A stretch of DNA of 16,973 nucleotides, taken from the NCBI GenBank assembly GCA_903897935.1, contig CAIUDO010000223.1, positions 1 through 16,973 of the forward strand. Direction: 5' to 3'. How positions within the stretch are numbered: position 1 is the first letter of the stretch; each line of letters begins with the position of its first letter. Under the pieces are notes generated by a model that saw only the letters and a program-made list of their open reading frames with translations, was not told the DNA's origin and searched no databases. This DNA comes from an uncultured Pseudomonadota bacterium. GTDB taxonomy: Bacteria > Myxococcota_A > UBA796 > GCA-2862545. Of the stretch, positions 6,529-16,973 are shown in pieces. Position numbers and translations under genes: made by a program.

Positions 6529-7723
6529 GCTCGTCGTCCTCGCCTTCTCGGGCGGCCTCGACACGTCGTTCCTCGTCCCGTGGCTGCGTGAGCGCCGCGG
6601 CGCCGACGTCGTCACCGTCACCGTCGACACCGGCGGCCTCGACGACGCCGAGCGGGCCACGATCGCGGCGCGTGCGCGCGCCCTCGGCGCGGTCGAGCAC
6701 GTCGTCGTCGACGGCCGCGCCGCCTTCTTCGACGAGACCCTCCGCTTCCTCGTGATGGGCAACGTGCTGCGCGGCCACCTCTACCCGCTGTGCGTCGGCG
6801 CGGAGCGCGGCTTACAAGCGCGGGTGGTCGCCGCGGAGGCGCGGCGCCTCGGGGCCCGTGCGGTGGCCCACGGCAGCACCGCGGCCGGAAACGACCAGGT
6901 CCGGTTCGAGGTCGCGCTGCGCACGCTGGCGCCCGAGCTCGAGATCCTCGCCCCCGTGCGCGACGAGGGGTTCTCCCGCGCCGATGAGGTGTTGTTCCTC
7001 GCCGCCCGAGGGGTGGACTGGCCGTCCGAGCGCGCCGCCTACTCGGTCAACGCTGGCCTGTGGGGGGTCACGATCGGCGGCCGCGAGACGGCGGACACGG
7101 TCGATCCGCTCCCCGAGCACGCCTGGGTGTGGTCGCGCGGCGCCTTCGATCCCCCGGCCCCCCCAGAGCGGCACACGGTCACCTTCAAAGCCGGGGTCCC
7201 GTGCGCGCTCGACGAAGTCGCGATGGACCCGGTGACGCTCGTCACCGCGCTGAACACGCTCGGGGCGAGGTTCGGTGTCGGCAGGGGCATTCACCTCGGC
7301 GACACCATCTTCGGCCTGAAGGGGCGCGTCGCGTTCGAGGCGCCCGCCGCGTCGATCCTGGTGACGGCCCACCGCGAGCTCGAGAAGCTGGTGCTCACGC
7401 AGCGCCAGCAGCGCGTCAAAGACCAGGTCGCCGTCACGTATGGCGATCTGGTGCACGAGGGGCAGGCGCTCGACCCCGTCTGCCGTGACATCGAGGCGCT
7501 GTTCCTGCGCTCCCAGGAGCGGGTCACCGGGCAGGTCTCGGTGTTGTTGCGGCCAGGCGCCCTGTTCGTCGAGGGGGTGTCGTCCCCGTGGTCGCTGCGC
7601 GCGGCCTCGCGCGGGGTGTACGGCGAGGCGGCCGGTGAGTGGACTGGGGCCGACGCCCGTGGCTTCTCGCGACTACAAGCGTTGCCCGGCATGCTCCACG
7701 GCCGGGCGGGAGGCGCACTTTGA
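6521..7723 (+). CDS. argG: Argininosuccinate synthase
   Basis: 400 aa. It carries the PP-loop motif VVLAFSGGLDTS and the conserved AHGSTAAGNDQVRFE. ATG at 6521 is preceded by GGAG and overlaps the argR stop (ATGCCTGA). Confidence 0.92.
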   Translation: MPELVVLAFSGGLDTSFLVPWLRERRGADVVTVTVDTGGLDDAERATIAARARALGAVEHVVVDGRAAFFDETLRFLVMGNVLRGHLYPLCVGAERGLQARVVAAEARRLGARAVAHGSTAAGNDQVRFEVALRTLAPELEILAPVRDEGFSRADEVLFLAARGVDWPSERAAYSVNAGLWGVTIGGRETADTVDPLPEHAWVWSRGAFDPPAPPERHTVTFKAGVPCALDEVAMDPVTLVTALNTLGARFGVGRGIHLGDTIFGLKGRVAFEAPAASILVTAHRELEKLVLTQRQQRVKDQVAVTYGDLVHEGQALDPVCRDIEALFLRSQERVTGQVSVLLRPGALFVEGVSSPWSLRAASRGVYGEAAGEWTGADARGFSRLQALPGMLHGRAGGAL

Positions 7724-8808: not shown

Positions 8809-9865
8809 CGCCGTCCCGGTCGTGGTGCTCGGGGGCACCGGGTACGTCTCGGGTGAGCTGCTGCGCCTGCTCGCCGGGCACCCCTCCCTGCGCGTGGCGG
8901 CGGTGGTGTCGACCTCGCACGCGGGCGCGCCGGTCACGGCCTCCTTCCCCCACCTCGCGGGGTGTGGCCTCGACGGGCTCGTGTTCTCCGAGCCCTCCGC
9001 GCTGGCCCACCTCGTCCGGTCAGGTGGGCGCCTCGCGGTGTTCGCGGCCACCCCGCACGGCGCGACCGCCCCCTTGGTCGACGGGCTGCTTGGCGAGGCG
9101 GAGGCCGCCGGCACCGAGGCGCACGTCGTCGATCTGTCGGCGGACTTCCGATTCTCGGATCCGACACGGTTCGCCGCGGTCTACGGCTCGCCGCACGCCG
9201 CCCCCCACCGGCTCGCCGCGTTCTCACGCGGCGTCCCCGAGCACGTCACCGGACCGGTCGGGCCGCACGCGGCGCAGCCGGGGTGCTTCGTCACTGCGGC
9301 GGTGCTCGCCGCGTACCCGGCGTTCGCCCTCGGTATCGTCGAGCCGGACGTCTTCGTCTCCGGGGTCACCGGCAGCTCCGGCAGCGGGCGCACACCCGCC
9401 GCGAACACCCACCACCCCGAGCGGCGCAGCACGCTGTACGCCTACGCGCCCCTCAACCACCGCCACGAAGCCGAGATGCGCTCCTTGCTCGGCGTCGCCG
9501 CCGGAGGCGAGCCCGACGTCGCGTTCGTGCCACACTCGGGGCCGTTCGTGCGCGGCATCCACGCCACGTTGCGGCTCTCCCTGACCGCCCCCCGTCAGAC
9601 GGACGAGATCCTGGCCGCGTACCAGGTGTTCTACAGCGGAGCCCGGTTCGTCGACGTCGCCGCGGCGCCGCCGAAGCTCACCGACGTGGTGGGGACCAAC
9701 CGCGCGCGGATCGGGGTGACCGCGCGCGGGCGCGTGCTCGTCGTCACCTGCGTGATCGACAACCTCGTCAAAGGGTCCGCCGGGGGCGGGATCCAATGGA
9801 TGAACCGTCTGCTCGGGCTGCCAGAGGCGGCAGGGCTGACCCAACCTGGGCTCGGGTACCTCTGA
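8801..9865 (+). CDS. argC: N-acetyl-gamma-glutamyl-phosphate reductase
   Basis: It has the N-terminal NAD(P)-binding motif VVVLGGTGYVSGELLRLLAGHP and the active-site Cys motif PGCFVTAAVLA. ATG at 8801 is preceded by GAGG. An alternative in-frame ATG at 8786 has no RBS. Confidence 0.88.
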   Translation: MTDAVPVVVLGGTGYVSGELLRLLAGHPSLRVAAVVSTSHAGAPVTASFPHLAGCGLDGLVFSEPSALAHLVRSGGRLAVFAATPHGATAPLVDGLLGEAEAAGTEAHVVDLSADFRFSDPTRFAAVYGSPHAAPHRLAAFSRGVPEHVTGPVGPHAAQPGCFVTAAVLAAYPAFALGIVEPDVFVSGVTGSSGSGRTPAANTHHPERRSTLYAYAPLNHRHEAEMRSLLGVAAGGEPDVAFVPHSGPFVRGIHATLRLSLTAPRQTDEILAAYQVFYSGARFVDVAAAPPKLTDVVGTNRARIGVTARGRVLVVTCVIDNLVKGSAGGGIQWMNRLLGLPEAAGLTQPGLGYL

Positions 9866-10995
9866 TGACTGCGCTGCTCGACGTCTACCACCAGCTCCCG
9901 ATCGAGCCCGTGCGGGGCGAGGGCGTCTACCTCTACGACGCCGACGGCAAGCGGTACCTCGACGCCTACGGCGGCCACGCGGTGGCGCTGCTCGGGTACG
10001 ATCACCCCCGCCTCGTCGCGGCCCTGCACACCCAGGCGCGCGCGCTGTTCTTCCAGAGCAACGTGGTCCCGCTGACGATCCGGGAGCGCGCCGCCGAGCG
10101 GCTGCTCGCGTTCGGGCCCCCCGGGCTCGAGCGGGTGTTCTTCAGCAACTCGGGCGCCGAAGCCAACGAGAACGCGCTGCGGGTCGCGTTCGCGGCCACC
10201 GGGCGCCGCGAGGTCGTCGCGGTCGAAGGCGCCTTCCACGGGCGCACGGCCGCCGCTGCCGCCGTGACGGCCGGGAGCGACGGCTGGTACGGGTTCCCGC
10301 GCGCCCCGTTCGACGTCCGCTGGGTCCCGTTCGACGACGTCGACGCGCTCACCGCGGCCGTCGGCCCACAGACCGCCGCCCTGATCGTCGAGCCCGTGCA
10401 AGGCGTCGCCGGGGCCCGGGATCTGTCGACCGCGTGGATGCTCGCCGCGCGTCGCGTGACCGAGCAGGCCGGCGCTGCGCTGATCCTCGACGAGGTGCAG
10501 TGCGGGATGGGGCGCACCGGGTACCCGTTCGCGGCGCAGGCGCACGGGGTCACCCCCGACATCCTGACCACCGCCAAGGGCCTCGGCGGCGGCTTCCCGT
10601 GCGCCGCGACGATGTTCTCGGGCGCGCTCGCCAGCACCCTGCGTAAGGGGGACCTCGGCACCACCTTCGGGGGGGGCCCCCTCGCGGCGGCGATGATCGA
10701 GGTCGTCATCGACACCATCGAGCGCGACGGCTTGCTCGCGAACGTGCGGCGTTTGTCCAATCGTCTGCGCGAGGAGGCCATCGGGGGGTGCGTGACTGGG
10801 GCCCAGGGCATGGGGTTCTTGCTCGGGCTGCGTGTCGACCGGCCGGCCCGCGAGGTGCTCGCCGCCTTACGCGACGCCGGCGTGCTGGCCGGCAGCGCCG
10901 GCGACCCGTCCATCGTCCGCCTGCTGCCGCCGCTCGTGCTCGACGACGGCCATGTCGACGCCATCATCGCCGCCCTGCGTGGAGCCTCATCGTGA
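9865..10995 (+). CDS. argD: Acetylornithine aminotransferase (class III PLP aminotransferase)
   Basis: Motifs LDEVQCGMGRTG and the PLP lysine in TTAKGLGGGFP. ATG at 9865 overlaps the argC TGA (TGATG). Confidence 0.9.
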   Translation: MTALLDVYHQLPIEPVRGEGVYLYDADGKRYLDAYGGHAVALLGYDHPRLVAALHTQARALFFQSNVVPLTIRERAAERLLAFGPPGLERVFFSNSGAEANENALRVAFAATGRREVVAVEGAFHGRTAAAAAVTAGSDGWYGFPRAPFDVRWVPFDDVDALTAAVGPQTAALIVEPVQGVAGARDLSTAWMLAARRVTEQAGAALILDEVQCGMGRTGYPFAAQAHGVTPDILTTAKGLGGGFPCAATMFSGALASTLRKGDLGTTFGGGPLAAAMIEVVIDTIERDGLLANVRRLSNRLREEAIGGCVTGAQGMGFLLGLRVDRPAREVLAALRDAGVLAGSAGDPSIVRLLPPLVLDDGHVDAIIAALRGASS

Positions 10996-12002
10996 AGCGT
11001 TTCCTCGACCTCGACGACCTCACCGACGACCGCCTGCAGGCCGTGCTGCGCCGCGCCGCCGCGCTCGAGCGCGCCCCGATCACCGACGATCTGCGCGGCA
11101 AGACGATCGGCCTGCTGTTCATGAACCCCTCCCTGCGCACCCTGGCGTCGATGCAAGCCGGCGCACAGCAGCTCGGCGGCTCCACGTTCGTCATCACGCC
11201 CGGACAAGGCTCGTGGACGCTCGAGACGCGCGACAGCGTCGTGATGGACGGCGACGCGGTCGAGCACGTGCGGGAGGCCATCCCGGTGCTCGCGCAGTAC
11301 GCCGATGCGCTCGGGGTGCGCTGCTTCGCGAAGGGCAAGGACCTCGACGAGGACCTCGCGGACGGCCTGATCCGCCAGATGGCCGACCTGTGCCCGAAGC
11401 CGTTCATCAACCTCGAGTCTGCGCTGGCCCACCCCTGCCAGGCGCTGGCCGACTGGAAGACCCTGGAGGACCTCGACGTGCCGCGGCATGGGGGCCGCTT
11501 CGTGTTGTCGTGGGCCTACCACCCGAAGGCGCTGGCGCTCGCGGTGCCCACCGCCGCGCTCACCATGGCGGCCCGCCGCGGCATGGACGTCACCGTGCTG
11601 CACCCCGAGGGGTACGACCTGCCCGACCCGGTGCTGGGCAAGGCCCGCGCGCTCGCCGCGTCGTCCGGAGGCAGCGTCACCGTGTCGCATGATCGGCGTC
11701 AGGCCCTCGACGGGGCGCACGTCGTGTACTGCAAGAGCTGGGGGGCCCCCCAGCACTACGGGCGCCCCGACGACGAAGCCGTGCTGCGCCGTGAGCTGCG
11801 CGACTGGTGCGTCCAGGAGTCCTGGTTCGGCCCAGCCCGGCCGGACGCAAGGTTCATGCATTGCTTGCCGGTGCGTCGCAACGTGAAGGTCGCCGACGAG
11901 GTGCTGGACGGCCCCCGCAGCGTCGTCGTGCAGCAAGCGGGCAACCGGCTGCACGCGCAGAAGGCCCTGATGATCGAGCTGTTGACGGAAGGAGGCGCCT
12001 GA
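10992..12002 (+). CDS. argF': N-acetylornithine (N-acyl-ornithine) carbamoyltransferase, ArgF'-type. It belongs to the Xanthomonas/Bacteroides AOTCase/SOTCase family rather than classical OTCase
   Basis: GTG at 10992 overlaps the argD stop (GTGA). Several blocks match the Xanthomonas campestris AOTCase sequence as I remember it: LRGKTIGLLFMNPSLRTLASMQAGAQQLGG, VMDGDAVEHVREAIPVLAQYADALGVRCF, INLESALAHPCQALADW and FMHCLP. A Glu sits in the WTLET segment at the position thought to select acetyl over succinyl. That alignment is made by eye. Confidence 0.85.
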   Translation: MKRFLDLDDLTDDRLQAVLRRAAALERAPITDDLRGKTIGLLFMNPSLRTLASMQAGAQQLGGSTFVITPGQGSWTLETRDSVVMDGDAVEHVREAIPVLAQYADALGVRCFAKGKDLDEDLADGLIRQMADLCPKPFINLESALAHPCQALADWKTLEDLDVPRHGGRFVLSWAYHPKALALAVPTAALTMAARRGMDVTVLHPEGYDLPDPVLGKARALAASSGGSVTVSHDRRQALDGAHVVYCKSWGAPQHYGRPDDEAVLRRELRDWCVQESWFGPARPDARFMHCLPVRRNVKVADEVLDGPRSVVVQQAGNRLHAQKALMIELLTEGGA

Positions 12003-12934
12003 TGACCCCAATGGATCGCGAATCTTCGATGATGGCGCTCGTGCGCACCCTCCCCTACGTACGGCTGTACCAGGGCAAGACCTTCGTGGTGAAGCTCGGG
12101 GGGAGCCTCAACCACGACCCCGCCGCCCTCCGCGCGACGATCGAGCAAGTGGGCACCCTGCTCGGCTTCGGCATCCGGGTGATCCTCGTGCACGGCGGCG
12201 GCCCGCAGGCAACGGCGCTCGCCGAGAAGCTCGGCATCTCGACCCCGTTCGTAGATGGTCGCCGAGTCACCTCCAAGGACGCCCTGGGGGCGGTCGTCAT
12301 GGCCATCAACGGCACCGTCTCCACGCAGATCCTCGCCGAGTGTCGCCGCGCCGGGGTGCCTGCGATCGGCCTGTCCGGGGTCGACGCCGCGCTGATCAAG
12401 GCGCGGCACCGCCCCCCCGTCACCCGCACCACCCCAGAGGGGGAGATCAACGTCGATTACGGCGAGGTCGGCTACGTCGCGTCGGTCCAGGCCGACGTGC
12501 TCGAGCGGCTGATCGGCGCCGGATTCACCCCCGTCGTCAGCCCGGTCGCCGCCGACGACGCCGGCCGGGTGCTCAACATCAACGCGGACACCGTCGCCGC
12601 GACGATCGCGGCCGCGGTCGGGGCGACGAAGCTGTTGTTCCTCACCGACGCGCCAGGCATCTTGGGGGATCGCGCCGACCCCGGGTCGCTCATCAGCTAC
12701 GTCGACCTCGCCGGGCTAGAGCGGCTGGAGGCGTCGGGCGCGGTTGCGGGTGGCATGTTGCCGAAGGTAAACGCCGCGCGGGCCGCGCTCGCCGCCGGGG
12801 TGCCGCGCGTACACATCGTCGGCCACGGCGGAAAGGGCGCGTTGCTCGCTGAGGTGTTCACGAACGAAGGCGCCGGGACGCTCATCGTCCGGGACACGTC
12901 CGAGCTGCAGCCGTCCGAGCTCGTGGAGGGGTGA
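12002..12934 (+). CDS. argB: N-acetylglutamate kinase
   Basis: 310 aa. Motifs VVKLGGS, NINADT and GGMLPK. ATG at 12002 is preceded by GGAGG with a 6-nt spacer and overlaps the argF' TGA. Confidence 0.9.
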   Translation: MTPMDRESSMMALVRTLPYVRLYQGKTFVVKLGGSLNHDPAALRATIEQVGTLLGFGIRVILVHGGGPQATALAEKLGISTPFVDGRRVTSKDALGAVVMAINGTVSTQILAECRRAGVPAIGLSGVDAALIKARHRPPVTRTTPEGEINVDYGEVGYVASVQADVLERLIGAGFTPVVSPVAADDAGRVLNINADTVAATIAAAVGATKLLFLTDAPGILGDRADPGSLISYVDLAGLERLEASGAVAGGMLPKVNAARAALAAGVPRVHIVGHGGKGALLAEVFTNEGAGTLIVRDTSELQPSELVEG

Positions 12935-14050
12935 TGGACGACCACGCGCTGCTCGAGTTCCACCGCGCGCTCGTCGCGACGCCGTCGGTCAGCGGCGACG
13001 AGGCCGCCGCGGCCGCGCTCGTCGCCGACACCCTCGCCGCGCGCGGCTGGCCGTCGACCCGGGTGGGCAACAACCTGTACGCGGTCGCCGGGTCGTCGGG
13101 GCCGGTGCTCTGCCTCAGCACCCACCTCGACACCGTGCCCCCCCTCCCCCCGGTGGACGCGCGATCCGTACGACGTCTCCGTAGTGGATGGCAAGGTGTA
13201 CGGGCTCGGCAGCAACGACGCCAAAGCGTCCGCGGCCGCGATGACCGCGGCGTTCGTACGCGTCGCCACCGACGCCGACGCCCTCAACGTGCGGGTGATG
13301 TTGGCGTTCACCGCCGAAGAAGAGACGCGCTGCGAGGGTTCGGAGATCCTGGTCGCGGCGCTCGGCGCGGTCGGCCTGACGCCCTCTGCCGTGATCGTCG
13401 GGGAGCCCACCGGGCTCGACGTCTCGATCGCGCAGAAGGGCCTCCTCGTGCTGGAGCTGGTCGCGAAGGGAGACGCTTGCCACGCGGCCCACGGGCGCGC
13501 GCTCGGCGCCCGCAACGCCATCCACGCGCTCGCGCGTGACCTCGTGGCGTTGGAGCAGGTCGATCTCGGCGGCGACCACCCGTCCCTCGGGCCCGTGACG
13601 GCCGAGCCGACGGTGGTTCAGGCAGGCACCGCGCGCAACATGGTGCCCGGCGAGGCCCGCTGCGTCATCGACGTGCGGGTCAACCCCTCACCGCCCCCCG
13701 GCGCGATCGCGGCGCGCATCGCGGCGGCGATCGAGGGGGAGGTCCGTGTGCTGTCCGATCGCCTGATCCCGTGCGAGATCGACGCGGATCACCCGCTCGT
13801 GAAGGCCGCGTTAACGGCGCGCCCCAGCGCAAAGGTGCTGGGGACGCGCGGGGTGAGCGACCTCGTGTTTTGGTCCCGGGCGGCGCCGGGCATCAAGGTG
13901 GGGCCGGGCCGCACCGAGCGCTCGCACACCCCCGACGAGTACGTGCTGGAGTCCGAGATCCTCGACGGCGTCGCGTTCTACGAGGCCACGCTGCGCGCGC
14001 TCGCCGCCGCCGGCCCCCTTCACCGAGGCCGAACCTCCACCGAGCAGTGA
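12934..14050 (+). CDS. argE: Acetylornithine deacetylase / M20-family deacylase (ArgE-like). It is interrupted by a frameshift in a C7-T-C6 homopolymer tract at 13138-13151, so this is either a pseudogene or a homopolymer sequencing error
   Basis: The N-terminal part in frame 1 contains the M20 motif LCLSTHLDTVPP. After the poly-C tract the M20 sequence continues in frame 2 (RDPYDVSVVDGKVYGLGSNDAKAS...). Deleting one C from the first run gives VPPSPRWTRDPYDV, which restores the expected Trp and the DPY motif. ATG at 12934 overlaps the argB TGA (TGATG). TGA stop at 14048-14050. Confidence 0.78.
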
Positions 14051-14532
14051 TCGCCGCCCTCGGCCATCTGGATCGCGTAGCGCTCGCCGAGCCAGCGATC
14101 GACGCGCGCCGTCGGCATGTCCCGGGTCGACGACGGCTCGCCAAAGGTGCGCACCAGGTCGGCCCGCCGCCGCTCGCAGCCGTCGAACCCGAACGAGAGC
14201 TCGATGCGGGCGACGACGTCGCCGCCCACCGTGACGATCCCGTACAAACGCTCCCCGTCGACCCCGGATGGACCCAGCACGTAGGTGTTCGGCTCGGTCG
14301 GGGACGGCTCGATCGGCCACGACGCCGCCACGCCCACCACCGACGCCCCAACCAGGAACGGCGTCGCGGGGGGCGTCACGCGCGGGGAGACCCACCCCTC
14401 GGGCAGGCCCGGCGCCGCGTCCACCGCCCGGTTCGGGTTGGGGCCCGCCGCGCCGCGCCGCGGCTGCGGGGCAGCCGCCGGCGGAGCCGGCTCGGGAGCC
14501 CCCGCGCACGCCCACAGCGCCGTCACCCACAC
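14020..14532 (-). CDS. Hypothetical 170-aa protein with an N-terminal LWAC segment and an Ala/Pro-rich linker. It lies immediately downstream of the large repeat protein on the same strand, and its 3' end overlaps the end of argE convergently
   Basis: GC3 is high across the ORF. GTG start at 14532, TGA stop at 14020-14022. A signal peptide is doubtful because the n-region has no basic residue and the h-region is short. Confidence 0.45.
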   Translation of the reverse strand: MWVTALWACAGAPEPAPPAAAPQPRRGAAGPNPNRAVDAAPGLPEGWVSPRVTPPATPFLVGASVVGVAASWPIEPSPTEPNTYVLGPSGVDGERLYGIVTVGGDVVARIELSFGFDGCERRRADLVRTFGEPSSTRDMPTARVDRWLGERYAIQMAEGGDHCSVEVRPR

Positions 14533-16973
14533 CGGGACCGCCTCGTCACCACCCCCACCATCACGAGGGCGGCCACCCAGCCCAGGCCCCCCACCCCGCC
14601 GCCGTCACAGCCCGCGCAGCCCTTCGTCGAGGCTCCGGTCTCGGCGGCGACGCCGGTATCAACCTCCCCGCACCCCTCGTCGACCGACCCATCACAGTCG
14701 TTGTCGGCGCCGTCGCACATCTCCGCCGCGCCCGGGTACACGAACCCGTCGCCGTCGTCGCAGTCACCGAGCTCGGCGGAGATCCCGTCGTCGTCGAGGT
14801 CGGCGAGCCCCTCGTCCGCCTGGCCGTCGCAGTCGTCGTCGCGGCCGTTCAGCGCCTCCGGCGCGCCCGGGTACACCGCCGCATCGCCGTCGTCGCAGTC
14901 CCCGGCCGCCTCGGAGAACCCGTCCCCGTCGTCGTCCGTGGCCTCGGTGCCCTCGTCCACCGACCCGTCACAGTCGTTGTCGACCCCGTCCCCGGGGACC
15001 TCCGCGCCGTCGGGGTGGGTGCCCGCCGCGCTGTCGTCGCAGTCCCCGTCGTGCTCCGACCAGCCGTCCCCGTCGTCGTCGTACGCCGCCGTGCCCTCGT
15101 CGACGAGATCGTCACAGTCGTTGTCGACGCCGTCCTCGACCTCGGGCGCGCCCGGGTGCACGCCGGGGTCCCCTTCGTCACAGTCCCCCCCCGACGCGAC
15201 GTACCCGTCTCCGTCGGGATCCTCGACCGCGTCGTCGACCACGCCGTCGCAGTCGTCGTCGCGCCCGTTGCCGAGCACCTCGATAGCCCCGGGGTACACG
15301 AGCAGGTCGCTGTCGTCGCAGTCGCCGGCGACCTCCGACCACCCGTCGCCGTCGTCGTCGCTGCACTCGGTGCCCTCGTCGACGGACCCGTCACAGTCCT
15401 CGTCGACGCCGTCGCACAACTCGATCGCGCCCGGGCGGACCGCGGGGTCGCTGTCGTCACAGTCGCCGCCGGCCTCGGTGAACCCGTCGCCGTCGTCGTC
15501 CCCGGCGGAGGTGCCCTCGTCCACGACCCCGTCGCAGTCGTCGTCGACGCCAGGCGCCAGCTCCGGCGCGCCCGGGTACACAAGCGGGTCGCTGTCGTCG
15601 CAGTCGGGGCCCCCACCCCCGTCGAACCCGTCCCCGTCGACGTCGACGAGGTCGGCGCCGTCGCAGTCGTCATCGACCCCGTCGTACGGGACCTCGCCGG
15701 CGCCCGGGCCGACGTCCGGGTCCGCGTCGTCACAGTCCCCCACCTCCGCGACAACCCCATCGCGCGGCGCACACGCGACCTCGGGCGGCTCCACCCCCCA
15801 CCCGTCCCCGTCCCCGTCGGGGTACCACTCGGGCGCGTCCACCGCGTCTTCGTCGACGACCCCGTCGCAGTCGTCGTCGAGCGCGTTGCACCACTCGTCC
15901 AGGCCCGGCGCGATGGTGGCGACTGCGTCGTCGCAGTCGGTGTTGTCGGCGACGTACCCAAGTGGCTCCGCGCACGCGGCCACCGGGGCCAGCGAATCGC
16001 CGAACCCGTCGCCGTCCGCGTCGGCGAACCAGGTCGGCCCGGCGCCGTCGTCCACGACGCCGTCACAGTCGTCGTCCCGGCCGTCACAGACCTCCACGCC
16101 GGCCGGCGACACCGCCGCGTCGGCGTCGTCGCAGTCCGCGCGATCCCGCACATAGCCCGACGGCGCCGCGCAGTCCCCGACCGACGACGCCGGGTCGCCG
16201 AACCCGTCCCCGTCGGCGTCGGCGTACCAGGTCACATACACGATGCCTTCGTCCACGCCCCCGTTGCAGTTGTTGTCGGCGCCGTCGCACAGCTCGTCCG
16301 CGGCCGGGTACGTGTTGGCGTCGCGGTCGTCGCAGTCGTCCAGGTTGCCCGCGGTGCCCTCCGCAGGCGCGCACGCGCCGAGCGGCGCCGCGGCGTCCCC
16401 GAACCCGTCGCCGTCCGCGTCGGCCCACACGGTCCCGGCGCCGACGTCCACCGACGGATCCGCGTCGTCGACGAGGCCATCACAGTCATCATCGATCGTG
16501 TTGCACACCTCGACCGCGTCGGGGCGGACCGCTGACGACGAATCATCACAGTCGGTCGCGTCCGCGACCGCGCCACCGTCCGGTCCGCACGACCACGACG
16601 TCGCGCTCGGGTCGCCGAACCCGTCGCCGTCCGCGTCGGCGTGCCACGCGCTGCCGGACGCGGCGTCGCGGTCGGGGTCGGCGTCGTCGACGAGCCCGTC
16701 GCAGTCGTCGTCGTAGGCGTTGCACACCTCGGGGGCGTCGGGGCGGACCGCGGCGTCGGCGTCGTCGCAGTCGGAGGCGTCGGCGAGCGAACCGGCGGGC
16801 GGATCACACGCGGCCACCGACGACGACGCGTCGCCGAACCCGTCGAGGTCCAGGTCCGGGTGCCACTCCGCGAACGACGTAGGATCGACCGATGGATCTC
16901 CGTCGTCGGCGAGCCCGTCGCAGTCGTCGTCGAACCCGTTGCAGACCTCGGACGCCGCTGGGTGGACCGCCGG
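14523..16973 (-). CDS. Very large secreted repeat protein whose N-terminus lies beyond the window. It is built from about 50-aa Asp/Cys-rich putative metal/Ca-binding repeats of the MopE-like 'putative metal-binding motif' class (thrombospondin-type-3-like) and ends in a MYXO-CTERM-like anchor (GCAGCDGGG-hydrophobic-RRSR)
   Basis: The minus-strand frame is open from 14526 to the window edge (codons checked through 16973). At least 13 repeats of the form DCDDxDAxVxPGAxExCDGxDDDCDGxVDEG / WYxDADGDGFGD are present. The C-terminus reads KGCAGCDGGGVGGLGWVAALVMVGVVTRRSRCG. TGA stop at 14523-14525. Confidence 0.8.
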   Translation of the reverse strand, partial: PAVHPAASEVCNGFDDDCDGLADDGDPSVDPTSFAEWHPDLDLDGFGDASSSVAACDPPAGSLADASDCDDADAAVRPDAPEVCNAYDDDCDGLVDDADPDRDAASGSAWHADADGDGFGDPSATSWSCGPDGGAVADATDCDDSSSAVRPDAVEVCNTIDDDCDGLVDDADPSVDVGAGTVWADADGDGFGDAAAPLGACAPAEGTAGNLDDCDDRDANTYPAADELCDGADNNCNGGVDEGIVYVTWYADADGDGFGDPASSVGDCAAPSGYVRDRADCDDADAAVSPAGVEVCDGRDDDCDGVVDDGAGPTWFADADGDGFGDSLAPVAACAEPLGYVADNTDCDDAVATIAPGLDEWCNALDDDCDGVVDEDAVDAPEWYPDGDGDGWGVEPPEVACAPRDGVVAEVGDCDDADPDVGPGAGEVPYDGVDDDCDGADLVDVDGDGFDGGGGPDCDDSDPLVYPGAPELAPGVDDDCDGVVDEGTSAGDDDGDGFTEAGGDCDDSDPAVRPGAIELCDGVDEDCDGSVDEGTECSDDDGDGWSEVAGDCDDSDLLVYPGAIEVLGNGRDDDCDGVVDDAVEDPDGDGYVASGGDCDEGDPGVHPGAPEVEDGVDNDCDDLVDEGTAAYDDDGDGWSEHDGDCDDSAAGTHPDGAEVPGDGVDNDCDGSVDEGTEATDDDGDGFSEAAGDCDDGDAAVYPGAPEALNGRDDDCDGQADEGLADLDDDGISAELGDCDDGDGFVYPGAAEMCDGADNDCDGSVDEGCGEVDTGVAAETGASTKGCAGCDGGGVGGLGWVAALVMVGVVTRRSRCG
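14717..16973 (-). repeat. Tandem, diverged coding repeats of about 150 bp (gtcgtcgtcgcagtcgtc-type strings) that encode the DCDD/DDDCDG modules
   Basis: Motif strings recur periodically through the CDS at DNA and protein level. The plus-strand Ser/Pro-rich shadow ORFs are a by-product of these repeats. Confidence 0.7.

Follow-up and report, generated by a model that had tools for sequence, protein, structure and literature searches.

We have analysed a 16,973-bp stretch of DNA with 73% G+C (the window, a complete NCBI/ENA contig), in which the gene for an M20-family deacylase, the last gene of an arginine biosynthesis operon, is split by a single surplus C in a homopolymer tract. The best explanation, to which we give a probability of roughly one half, is that the extra C arose as an error in the consensus and is absent from the DNA of the cell. 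A base-calling or assembly miscount, in a stretch where 13 of 14 nucleotides are C and the surrounding DNA is very G+C-rich, would have lengthened by one C the CCC CCC of an N-acyl-citrulline (ArgE-type) deacylase gene that is itself normal and kept by selection; the full 371-aa enzyme would then be produced, and the organism would be prototrophic for arginine. A genuine and very recent slippage mutation is the principal rival, which we hold at somewhat under even odds, and all remaining readings taken together deserve little weight.

The tract consists of C7 (13138-13144), a T (13145) and C6 (13146-13151), in the context GTG-CCCCCCC-T-CCCCCC-GG at 13135-13153. It divides the gene as follows:

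12934..13137, + strand: codons 1-68 of the M20 deacylase in frame 1, with the metal ligands H64/D66 only
13138..13144, + strand: C7 run with one surplus C; the conspecific C6 is CCC CCC, Pro69-Pro70
13145..13151, + strand: T and C6 (TCC CCC C), i.e., Ser71-Pro72 and the start of Arg73; length as in relatives, with TCCCCCC the same in L001 and L020-L028
13145..14050, + strand: codons 71-371 of the M20 deacylase and the stop in frame 2, with D95, E129/E130, E157, H331 and the dimerisation domain
13537..13539, + strand: premature stop in frame 1; the product has 201 aa, including a 131-aa Arg-rich nonsense tail

Both the bases and the reading frames place the frameshift exactly inside C7-T-C6, as the preliminary description of this DNA had it. 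The ATG at 12934 overlaps the argB stop codon (TGATG) and has GGAGG upstream. From there, frame 1 runs through STHLDTVPPLPPVDARS, reading STHLDTVPP and then nonsense to the stop at 13537-13539, and frame 2 carries PPSPRWTRDPYDVSVVDGKVYGLGSNDAK up to the stop at 14048-14050. Third-position G+C, which is about 0.9-1.0 in the real genes of this DNA, is high on both sides of the break and lies in phase 0 until ~13080 and in phase 1 from ~13200, i.e., it changes at the same place as the frame. Deletion of one C yields a 371-aa ORF in which the HLDTVP..WTR motif is regained. Its tract reads VPPSPRWTRDPYDV, with the Trp that the preliminary description expected from such a deletion, and this is exactly the sequence of the intact conspecific protein P0127, from which the repaired window protein differs in six residues. 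A surplus C in the second run, which would give VPPLPRW, was also considered and rejected; we place the surplus base in the first run because L001 and every conspecific have the second run unchanged, as C6, and relatives have Ser71, not Leu, at this position.

The tract itself is statistically unremarkable at 73% G+C: by chance one would expect 0.17 such composite patterns per window, and at least one occurred in 30/200 shuffles, and homopolymer runs of 6 or more number 30 in the window. The frame break is the point that matters. As judged from the residues they carry, neither M20 fragment could be active by itself, because the first product has only H64/D66 and the second, the window's own fragment in the public record (P0132, 284 aa, starting with YGLGSND), is without both.

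The repaired protein matches PF01546 with 91.6 bits (cut-off 24.6) over residues 60-354 and PF07687 with 51.4 bits (cut-off 21) over residues 165-268, so that the M20_dimer domain is inserted in the Peptidase_M20 catalytic domain. Its alignment with 14 homologues has no gaps across the site, and H64, D66, T67, V68, P69, W74, T75 and R76 are invariant. The same holds in this 15-sequence alignment for the di-metal ligands and the catalytic Glu (H64, D66, D95, E129, E130, E157 and H331), and the frameshift as written separates H64/D66 from the other ligands. Domains and ligand residues agree with the proposal of an ArgE/DapE-type M20 deacylase. No equivalog model for acetylornithine deacetylase, DapE or LysK passed: the best was NF005710 with 142.7 bits against a cut-off of 412, and both TIGR01910 (135.8 vs 217.6) and TIGR01892 (127.5 vs 297.7) stayed below theirs. 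On these scores the M20 assignment is justified at the family level only.

Further evidence on the reaction comes from the operon, whose genes overlap tightly and are translationally coupled in the order argR-argG-X-argC-argD-argF'-argB-M20:

6064..6528, + strand: argR, first gene of the cluster
6521..7723, + strand: argG, argininosuccinate synthase, 400 aa
7720..8808, + strand: X, uncharacterised conserved P-loop protein, 362 aa
8801..9865, + strand: argC
9865..10995, + strand: argD
10992..12002, + strand: argF', N-acyl-ornithine carbamoyltransferase, 336 aa (NF003384)
12002..12934, + strand: argB, 310 aa
12934..14050, + strand: M20 deacylase, which closes the operon

This gene order was also found in L017, a Deltaproteobacteria-labelled MAG in which argH comes next, and in the conspecific contigs L020-L025. 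The argF' product scores 389.5 bits against NF003384, the N-acetylornithine carbamoyltransferase model (cut-off 288), and is closest to the Xanthomonas campestris AOTCase structures (266-271 bits), the top PDB match being the E92V mutant 3L06; a classical OTC is absent from the cluster. Because the same operon encodes this N-acyl-ornithine carbamoyltransferase, the M20 enzyme most likely deacylates N-acetyl- or N-succinyl-citrulline, and its step most likely belongs to the penultimate block of the pathway, ahead of ArgG/ArgH. The earlier label of argE, the last step of the operon, is therefore right as to the family and probably wrong as to the reaction.

The nature of the acyl group is ambiguous because the argF' signature is mixed. 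Three discriminating AOTCase positions are known, Glu92, Asn185 and Lys302 in the X. campestris enzyme (PMC4581275), and A/S/P/V at the first of them goes with succinyl preference (PMC7311316). The window argF' has Val (succinyl-type), Ala (neither type) and Lys (acetyl-type), respectively, and the pathway could use acetylated or succinylated intermediates. Among solved structures, the best match to the M20 protein is a Bacteroides-type ArgE-like M20 deacylase, PDB 3CT9 (182 bits, residues 10-352). We take 3CT9 to be BT3549. The latter is the candidate N-succinylcitrulline desuccinylase of GapMind (PMC7311316). Compared with the Bacteroides-type system, the window argF' shares the succinyl-type Val, but Ala at Asn185 and Lys at Lys302 are not succinyl-type. 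The N-acetylcitrulline deacetylase ArgE' of X. campestris (PDB 2F7V) belongs to the same fold family and to the same logic, in which acyl-ornithine is carbamoylated and the M20 enzyme then deacylates acyl-citrulline; the match of the window protein to it is weak (64 bits; NF006439, 87 bits vs cut-off 345). With E. coli ArgE (PDB 7RSF, 84 bits) it has in common the M20 catalytic and dimerisation domains, the HxD...D...EE...E...H ligand pattern and the motif H-x-DTVP....(R)WT(R)DP(F/Y). E. coli has a classical OTC and the substrate of its ArgE is N-acetylornithine, whereas the window operon is without a classical OTC.

The relatives are informative about the length of the tract. Nine conspecific contigs from independent JGI/Logan samples (L020-L028; 97.3-98.0% nucleotide identity) all carry an intact gene with GTGCCCCCCTCCCCCCGG (GTG CCC CCC TCC CCC CGG), where the window has one C more. 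The comparison of poly-C length among relatives, which the preliminary description had proposed, thus gives C6-T-C6 in 9/9 conspecific contigs and C7 in the window alone. The protein P0127 (intact, 371 aa) is recorded on 19 contigs, of which L020-L028 are the nine that could be read. It comes from the 90% cluster of P0001, itself an intact 371-aa protein at 95% identity, and the only copy in this 90%-identity cluster that is truncated at the tract is P0132 of the window, on one contig. Over the 2.4-6.9 kb aligned between the window and the conspecific contigs, the extra C is the sole net indel; L020 and L027 show a few more gaps, which cancel out and reflect shuffles of the alignment within a repeat-rich gene. 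The distant relatives L001 (CCCGCC TCCCCCC) and L008 (CCAGCT TCCCCG) have intact genes that encode VPASPRW, with no long run in the first half. By this alignment, a substitution of Ala70 to Pro (GCC to CCC) made the C6 run in the species of the window, and the window then became one C longer.

Across different samples the M20 genes of L020-L028 are identical or one base apart. Such uniformity suggests that the uncultured species has a nearly clonal population with a wide distribution, from which the strain of the window has diverged by ~2.3%. Two assemblies of the same strain end before the tract: the 3,908-bp contig of ERZ1426837 in argB and the 1,963-bp contig of ERZ1426820 84 nt into M20. 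Look-ups of the exact products of both M20 fragments and of argR gave no match, and a scan of genome contigs for a same-strain copy across the tract returned only distant relatives, at ≤59% identity. A search of a large protein database with the 201-aa frameshifted product gave nothing at E ≤0.001; it missed the known 95% relative too, as the Arg-rich tail probably swamped the word filter.

The accuracy of the contig was assessed at its other homopolymers. From 10101 to 14849 there are 11 other runs of at least 6, a G8 and a C7 among them, and L021 agrees with the window in the length of each (11/11). The contig has no general homopolymer weakness, and the main argument for an artefact is gone; C7 is still unproven. 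Two further frame anomalies, at 4560-4566 and 5121, had been thought to cast doubt on the assembly. Both are gene remnants, and neither indicates a base-level error. At 4061-4955 (+ strand), gene A (~184 aa, P0122), minus its last ~17 codons, is joined out of frame to the last two-thirds of gene B (~200 aa, P0123-P0125), which is separate from A in homologues and whose first third is missing in the window. The junction near 4556-4560, with the same 229-aa product, recurs in three other ENA assemblies: ERZ27313389 (L018; 1 mismatch and 0 gaps over 1,126 bp across the junction), ERZ18645072 (L029; 0 gaps over 1,470 bp) and ERZ1426837. Because it is identical in these three assemblies, we read the 4560 junction as real, the scar of a rearrangement or deletion. 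L019, a relative at 87%, has after gene A a gene with an N-terminus that, judged by eye, resembles DUF4157.

The DNA from 4956 to ~5940 (+ strand) matches only internal residues, ~500-1000, of proteins of 1000-3000 aa (414 matches, the best at 247 bits). The ORF at 5121-6755 is Ala/Leu/Asp-rich, helical and without a stop of its own, its frame continuing across argR into argG. It is an internal piece of a very large gene, probably toxin-like, and its natural end appears to be missing, as a truncation would explain. This explanation comes from the homologue matches of one contig, corroboration by independent assemblies being that of the 4560 junction. Further one-base frameshifts at 4560 and 5121, as first suspected, were rejected, since the homologues show gene remnants.

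Downstream of the break, there is no second stop or indel over 300 codons. In this part of the gene dN/dS is 0.10-0.13 against L001 and L008, and on the branch of the window it is ~0.17 (32 synonymous and 14 non-synonymous changes). Compared with the conspecific L020 (gene identity 98.7%), M20 differs at 14 sites, 8 synonymous and 6 non-synonymous, which gives a dN/dS of 0.28; the values for argD, argF' and argB are 0.07-0.11, and with such small counts the excess over these neighbours is not significant (Fisher p = 0.09). When polarised, the changes divide into 3 synonymous/3 non-synonymous in the lineage of the window and 2/2 in the sister lineage. The seven other genes of the operon are intact. 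These substitution patterns are compatible with purifying selection on M20. The lesion is private to the window contig and, by these measures, very recent: we consider it evolutionarily instantaneous because there is no further lesion, dN/dS is low and replacements are not in excess in either lineage.

The preliminary description had framed the matter as assembly error against real lesion, and this is the right dichotomy. In favour of a consensus error, the C7 is a singleton against the intact conspecific contigs and L001/L008, and is the sole net indel. The absence of a second lesion, the retention of all invariant and metal-ligand residues and the low downstream dN/dS agree with it. Moreover, the other seven genes of the operon are intact and constrained, and a lone knock-out would render a costly operon useless. 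Against it stands the otherwise accurate contig, with its 11 matching homopolymers, and the agreement of two independent same-strain assemblies with the window (0 gaps and ≤1 mismatch over 1.1-1.5 kb). The independent assemblies of this strain all end before reaching the tract. The names of the sibling assemblies (k141_, scaffold_) look like short-read MEGAHIT/SPAdes output, where consensus indels in C6 runs would be uncommon; the platform of the window may differ. Real slippage mutations also arise at homopolymers, and by a rough estimate the prior rates of error and of real mutation, per run or per gene, are of the same order.

If instead the C7 is genuine, a slipped-strand event would very recently have added one C to the C6 run in the strain of the window, and M20 would now be a fresh pseudogene, a reading nearly as credible as the error. 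The cell would then need external arginine or citrulline, or would live on trace enzyme made by a +1 slip of tRNA-Pro on CCC-C, which gives VPPSPRW. The substitution that created the run is visible (CCCGCC in L001 vs CCCCCC in the species of the window), and elsewhere the base-level accuracy of the contig is high. This lineage does fix disruptive lesions, because real gene remnants lie at 4061-5940 on the same contig and the 4560 junction recurs in other assemblies. The dN/dS of M20 against conspecifics (0.28) is also above that of its neighbours (0.07-0.11), but this rests on 6 vs 8 changes (p = 0.09), evenly split between window and sister lineages. The mutation would, furthermore, be known from a single contig with the remaining operon intact and constrained, and selection should act against losing one step of a pathway that is complete and costly, unless the cell has free access to arginine.

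A C7 allele, if real, may leak, since +1 slippage on CCC-C is documented: with CC[C/U]-[C/U] placed at the second codon, frameshifting in E. coli reaches up to ~1% (PMC4519876). The window shares this feature with the +1-prone proline codons studied in connection with tRNA-Pro, m1G37 and EF-P (PMC4519876), as its break lies in CCC CCC C and a +1 slip restores the frame with no amino-acid change. The known CCC-C cases are low-level errors (~1% or less) or suppressor-tRNA effects, not normal gene expression, and for the window the slip is hypothetical. That C7 is real and that either the slip of tRNA-Pro on CCC-CCC-C, in a Pro-Pro stalling context, gives enough enzyme or the run toggles appreciably between C6 and C7 is a long shot. 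Were it true, a homopolymer of proline codons would throttle or switch a core pathway of amino-acid synthesis in an uncultured high-G+C bacterium from the wild.

Reversible phase variation, in which slipped-strand mispairing in the poly-C tract, acting as a contingency locus, would toggle arginine prototrophy, had been raised in the preliminary description and now seems very improbable. The break does lie within a homopolymer, where a one-base change either way flips the frame. Yet no length polymorphism is seen: nine independent conspecific contigs are all C6-T-C6, the identical intact protein is found on 19 contigs, and the 90% cluster contains no truncated copy besides that of the window. 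Such runs are commonplace (30 of 6 or more in 17 kb), and distant relatives are without the run. Typical phase-variable G/C tracts are usually 8 or more in length, and C6/C7 is shorter; nor is a housekeeping biosynthetic gene the usual target class of phase variation.

Programmed recoding, in which ribosomes would shift +1 efficiently at the C run, or transcription would slip there, so that the full-length enzyme is normally made, is less probable again. CCC-C is intrinsically +1 slippery, Pro-Pro can stall ribosomes (PMC4519876), and the shift yields conserved sequence. The arrangement is not conserved, however, as every homologue examined is single-frame, and frame 0 meets neither a stop nor a rare codon there: CTC follows, and the stop comes 130 codons on. 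No Shine-Dalgarno-like element (GGAGG) was found just upstream of the C run, and the RNA downstream of it does not exceed shuffled sequence in structure (z = 0.16). Efficient transcriptional slippage also needs a C run longer than 7 nt. Finally, an old, decaying pseudogene, with another enzyme serving the pathway and the M20 copy a relic, would fit the real gene remnants a few kb upstream on the same contig but is effectively refuted by the single lesion, the undiminished third-position GC signal on either side of it, the dN/dS of 0.10-0.17 in the deeper comparison, the preserved invariant and catalytic residues and the intact conspecifics at 98.7% identity.

A private one-base change in the length of a homopolymer, in a gene that is functional in its lineage, is ordinary and of a kind already known. 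Draft genomes and MAGs likewise contain housekeeping genes that are split by one base in a G/C run while relatives are intact; unlike the usual cases, the surrounding contig here has no other homopolymer discrepancy, and an error cannot be assumed. Annotators would do best to enter the gene as an intact N-acyl-citrulline/ornithine deacylase of 371 aa and to flag the possible frameshift. If the extra C is an error, the organism should not count as an arginine auxotroph in metabolic reconstructions. If the C7 is real, the window would show a natural population at the very start of losing a pathway, with one lesion and all else intact, which would be mildly useful for studies of how auxotrophy evolves and not a surprise. 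More useful are two by-products of the analysis, an operon of the acyl-ornithine carbamoyltransferase type with a mixed signature and the well-conserved P-loop gene X.

The product of gene X exceeded the cut-off of no family; its weak matches, at residues ~156-250, are to the P-loop proteins MobB/CobQ/BioD/DUF1611_C, and its Walker A motif is GTCMNAGKT. In L017 the gene has the same position (4743-5837) and 77% aa identity, M20 being less conserved with 67%. A single-sequence AlphaFold model had a mean pLDDT of 34. The cluster encodes neither argA nor argJ, and because of this gene X may be put forward, speculatively, as a candidate N-acyl-glutamate synthase, which would supply the absent first step.

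Just upstream of argR, an AT-rich island at 5975-6030 contains the palindrome ATGCGCAT twice (5989-5996 and 6009-6016) with a spacing of 20 bp. The two copies are plausible as putative ArgR operator half-sites, which would mean that the operon is autoregulated. On the other side, a gene on the - strand (14523-16817) converges on the arg operon and encodes a 764-aa protein with 13 MopE-type putative metal-binding motifs (PF11617, 396 bits). Between them, a small ORF at 14020-14532 (- strand) overlaps the 3' end of M20 by ~30 nt.
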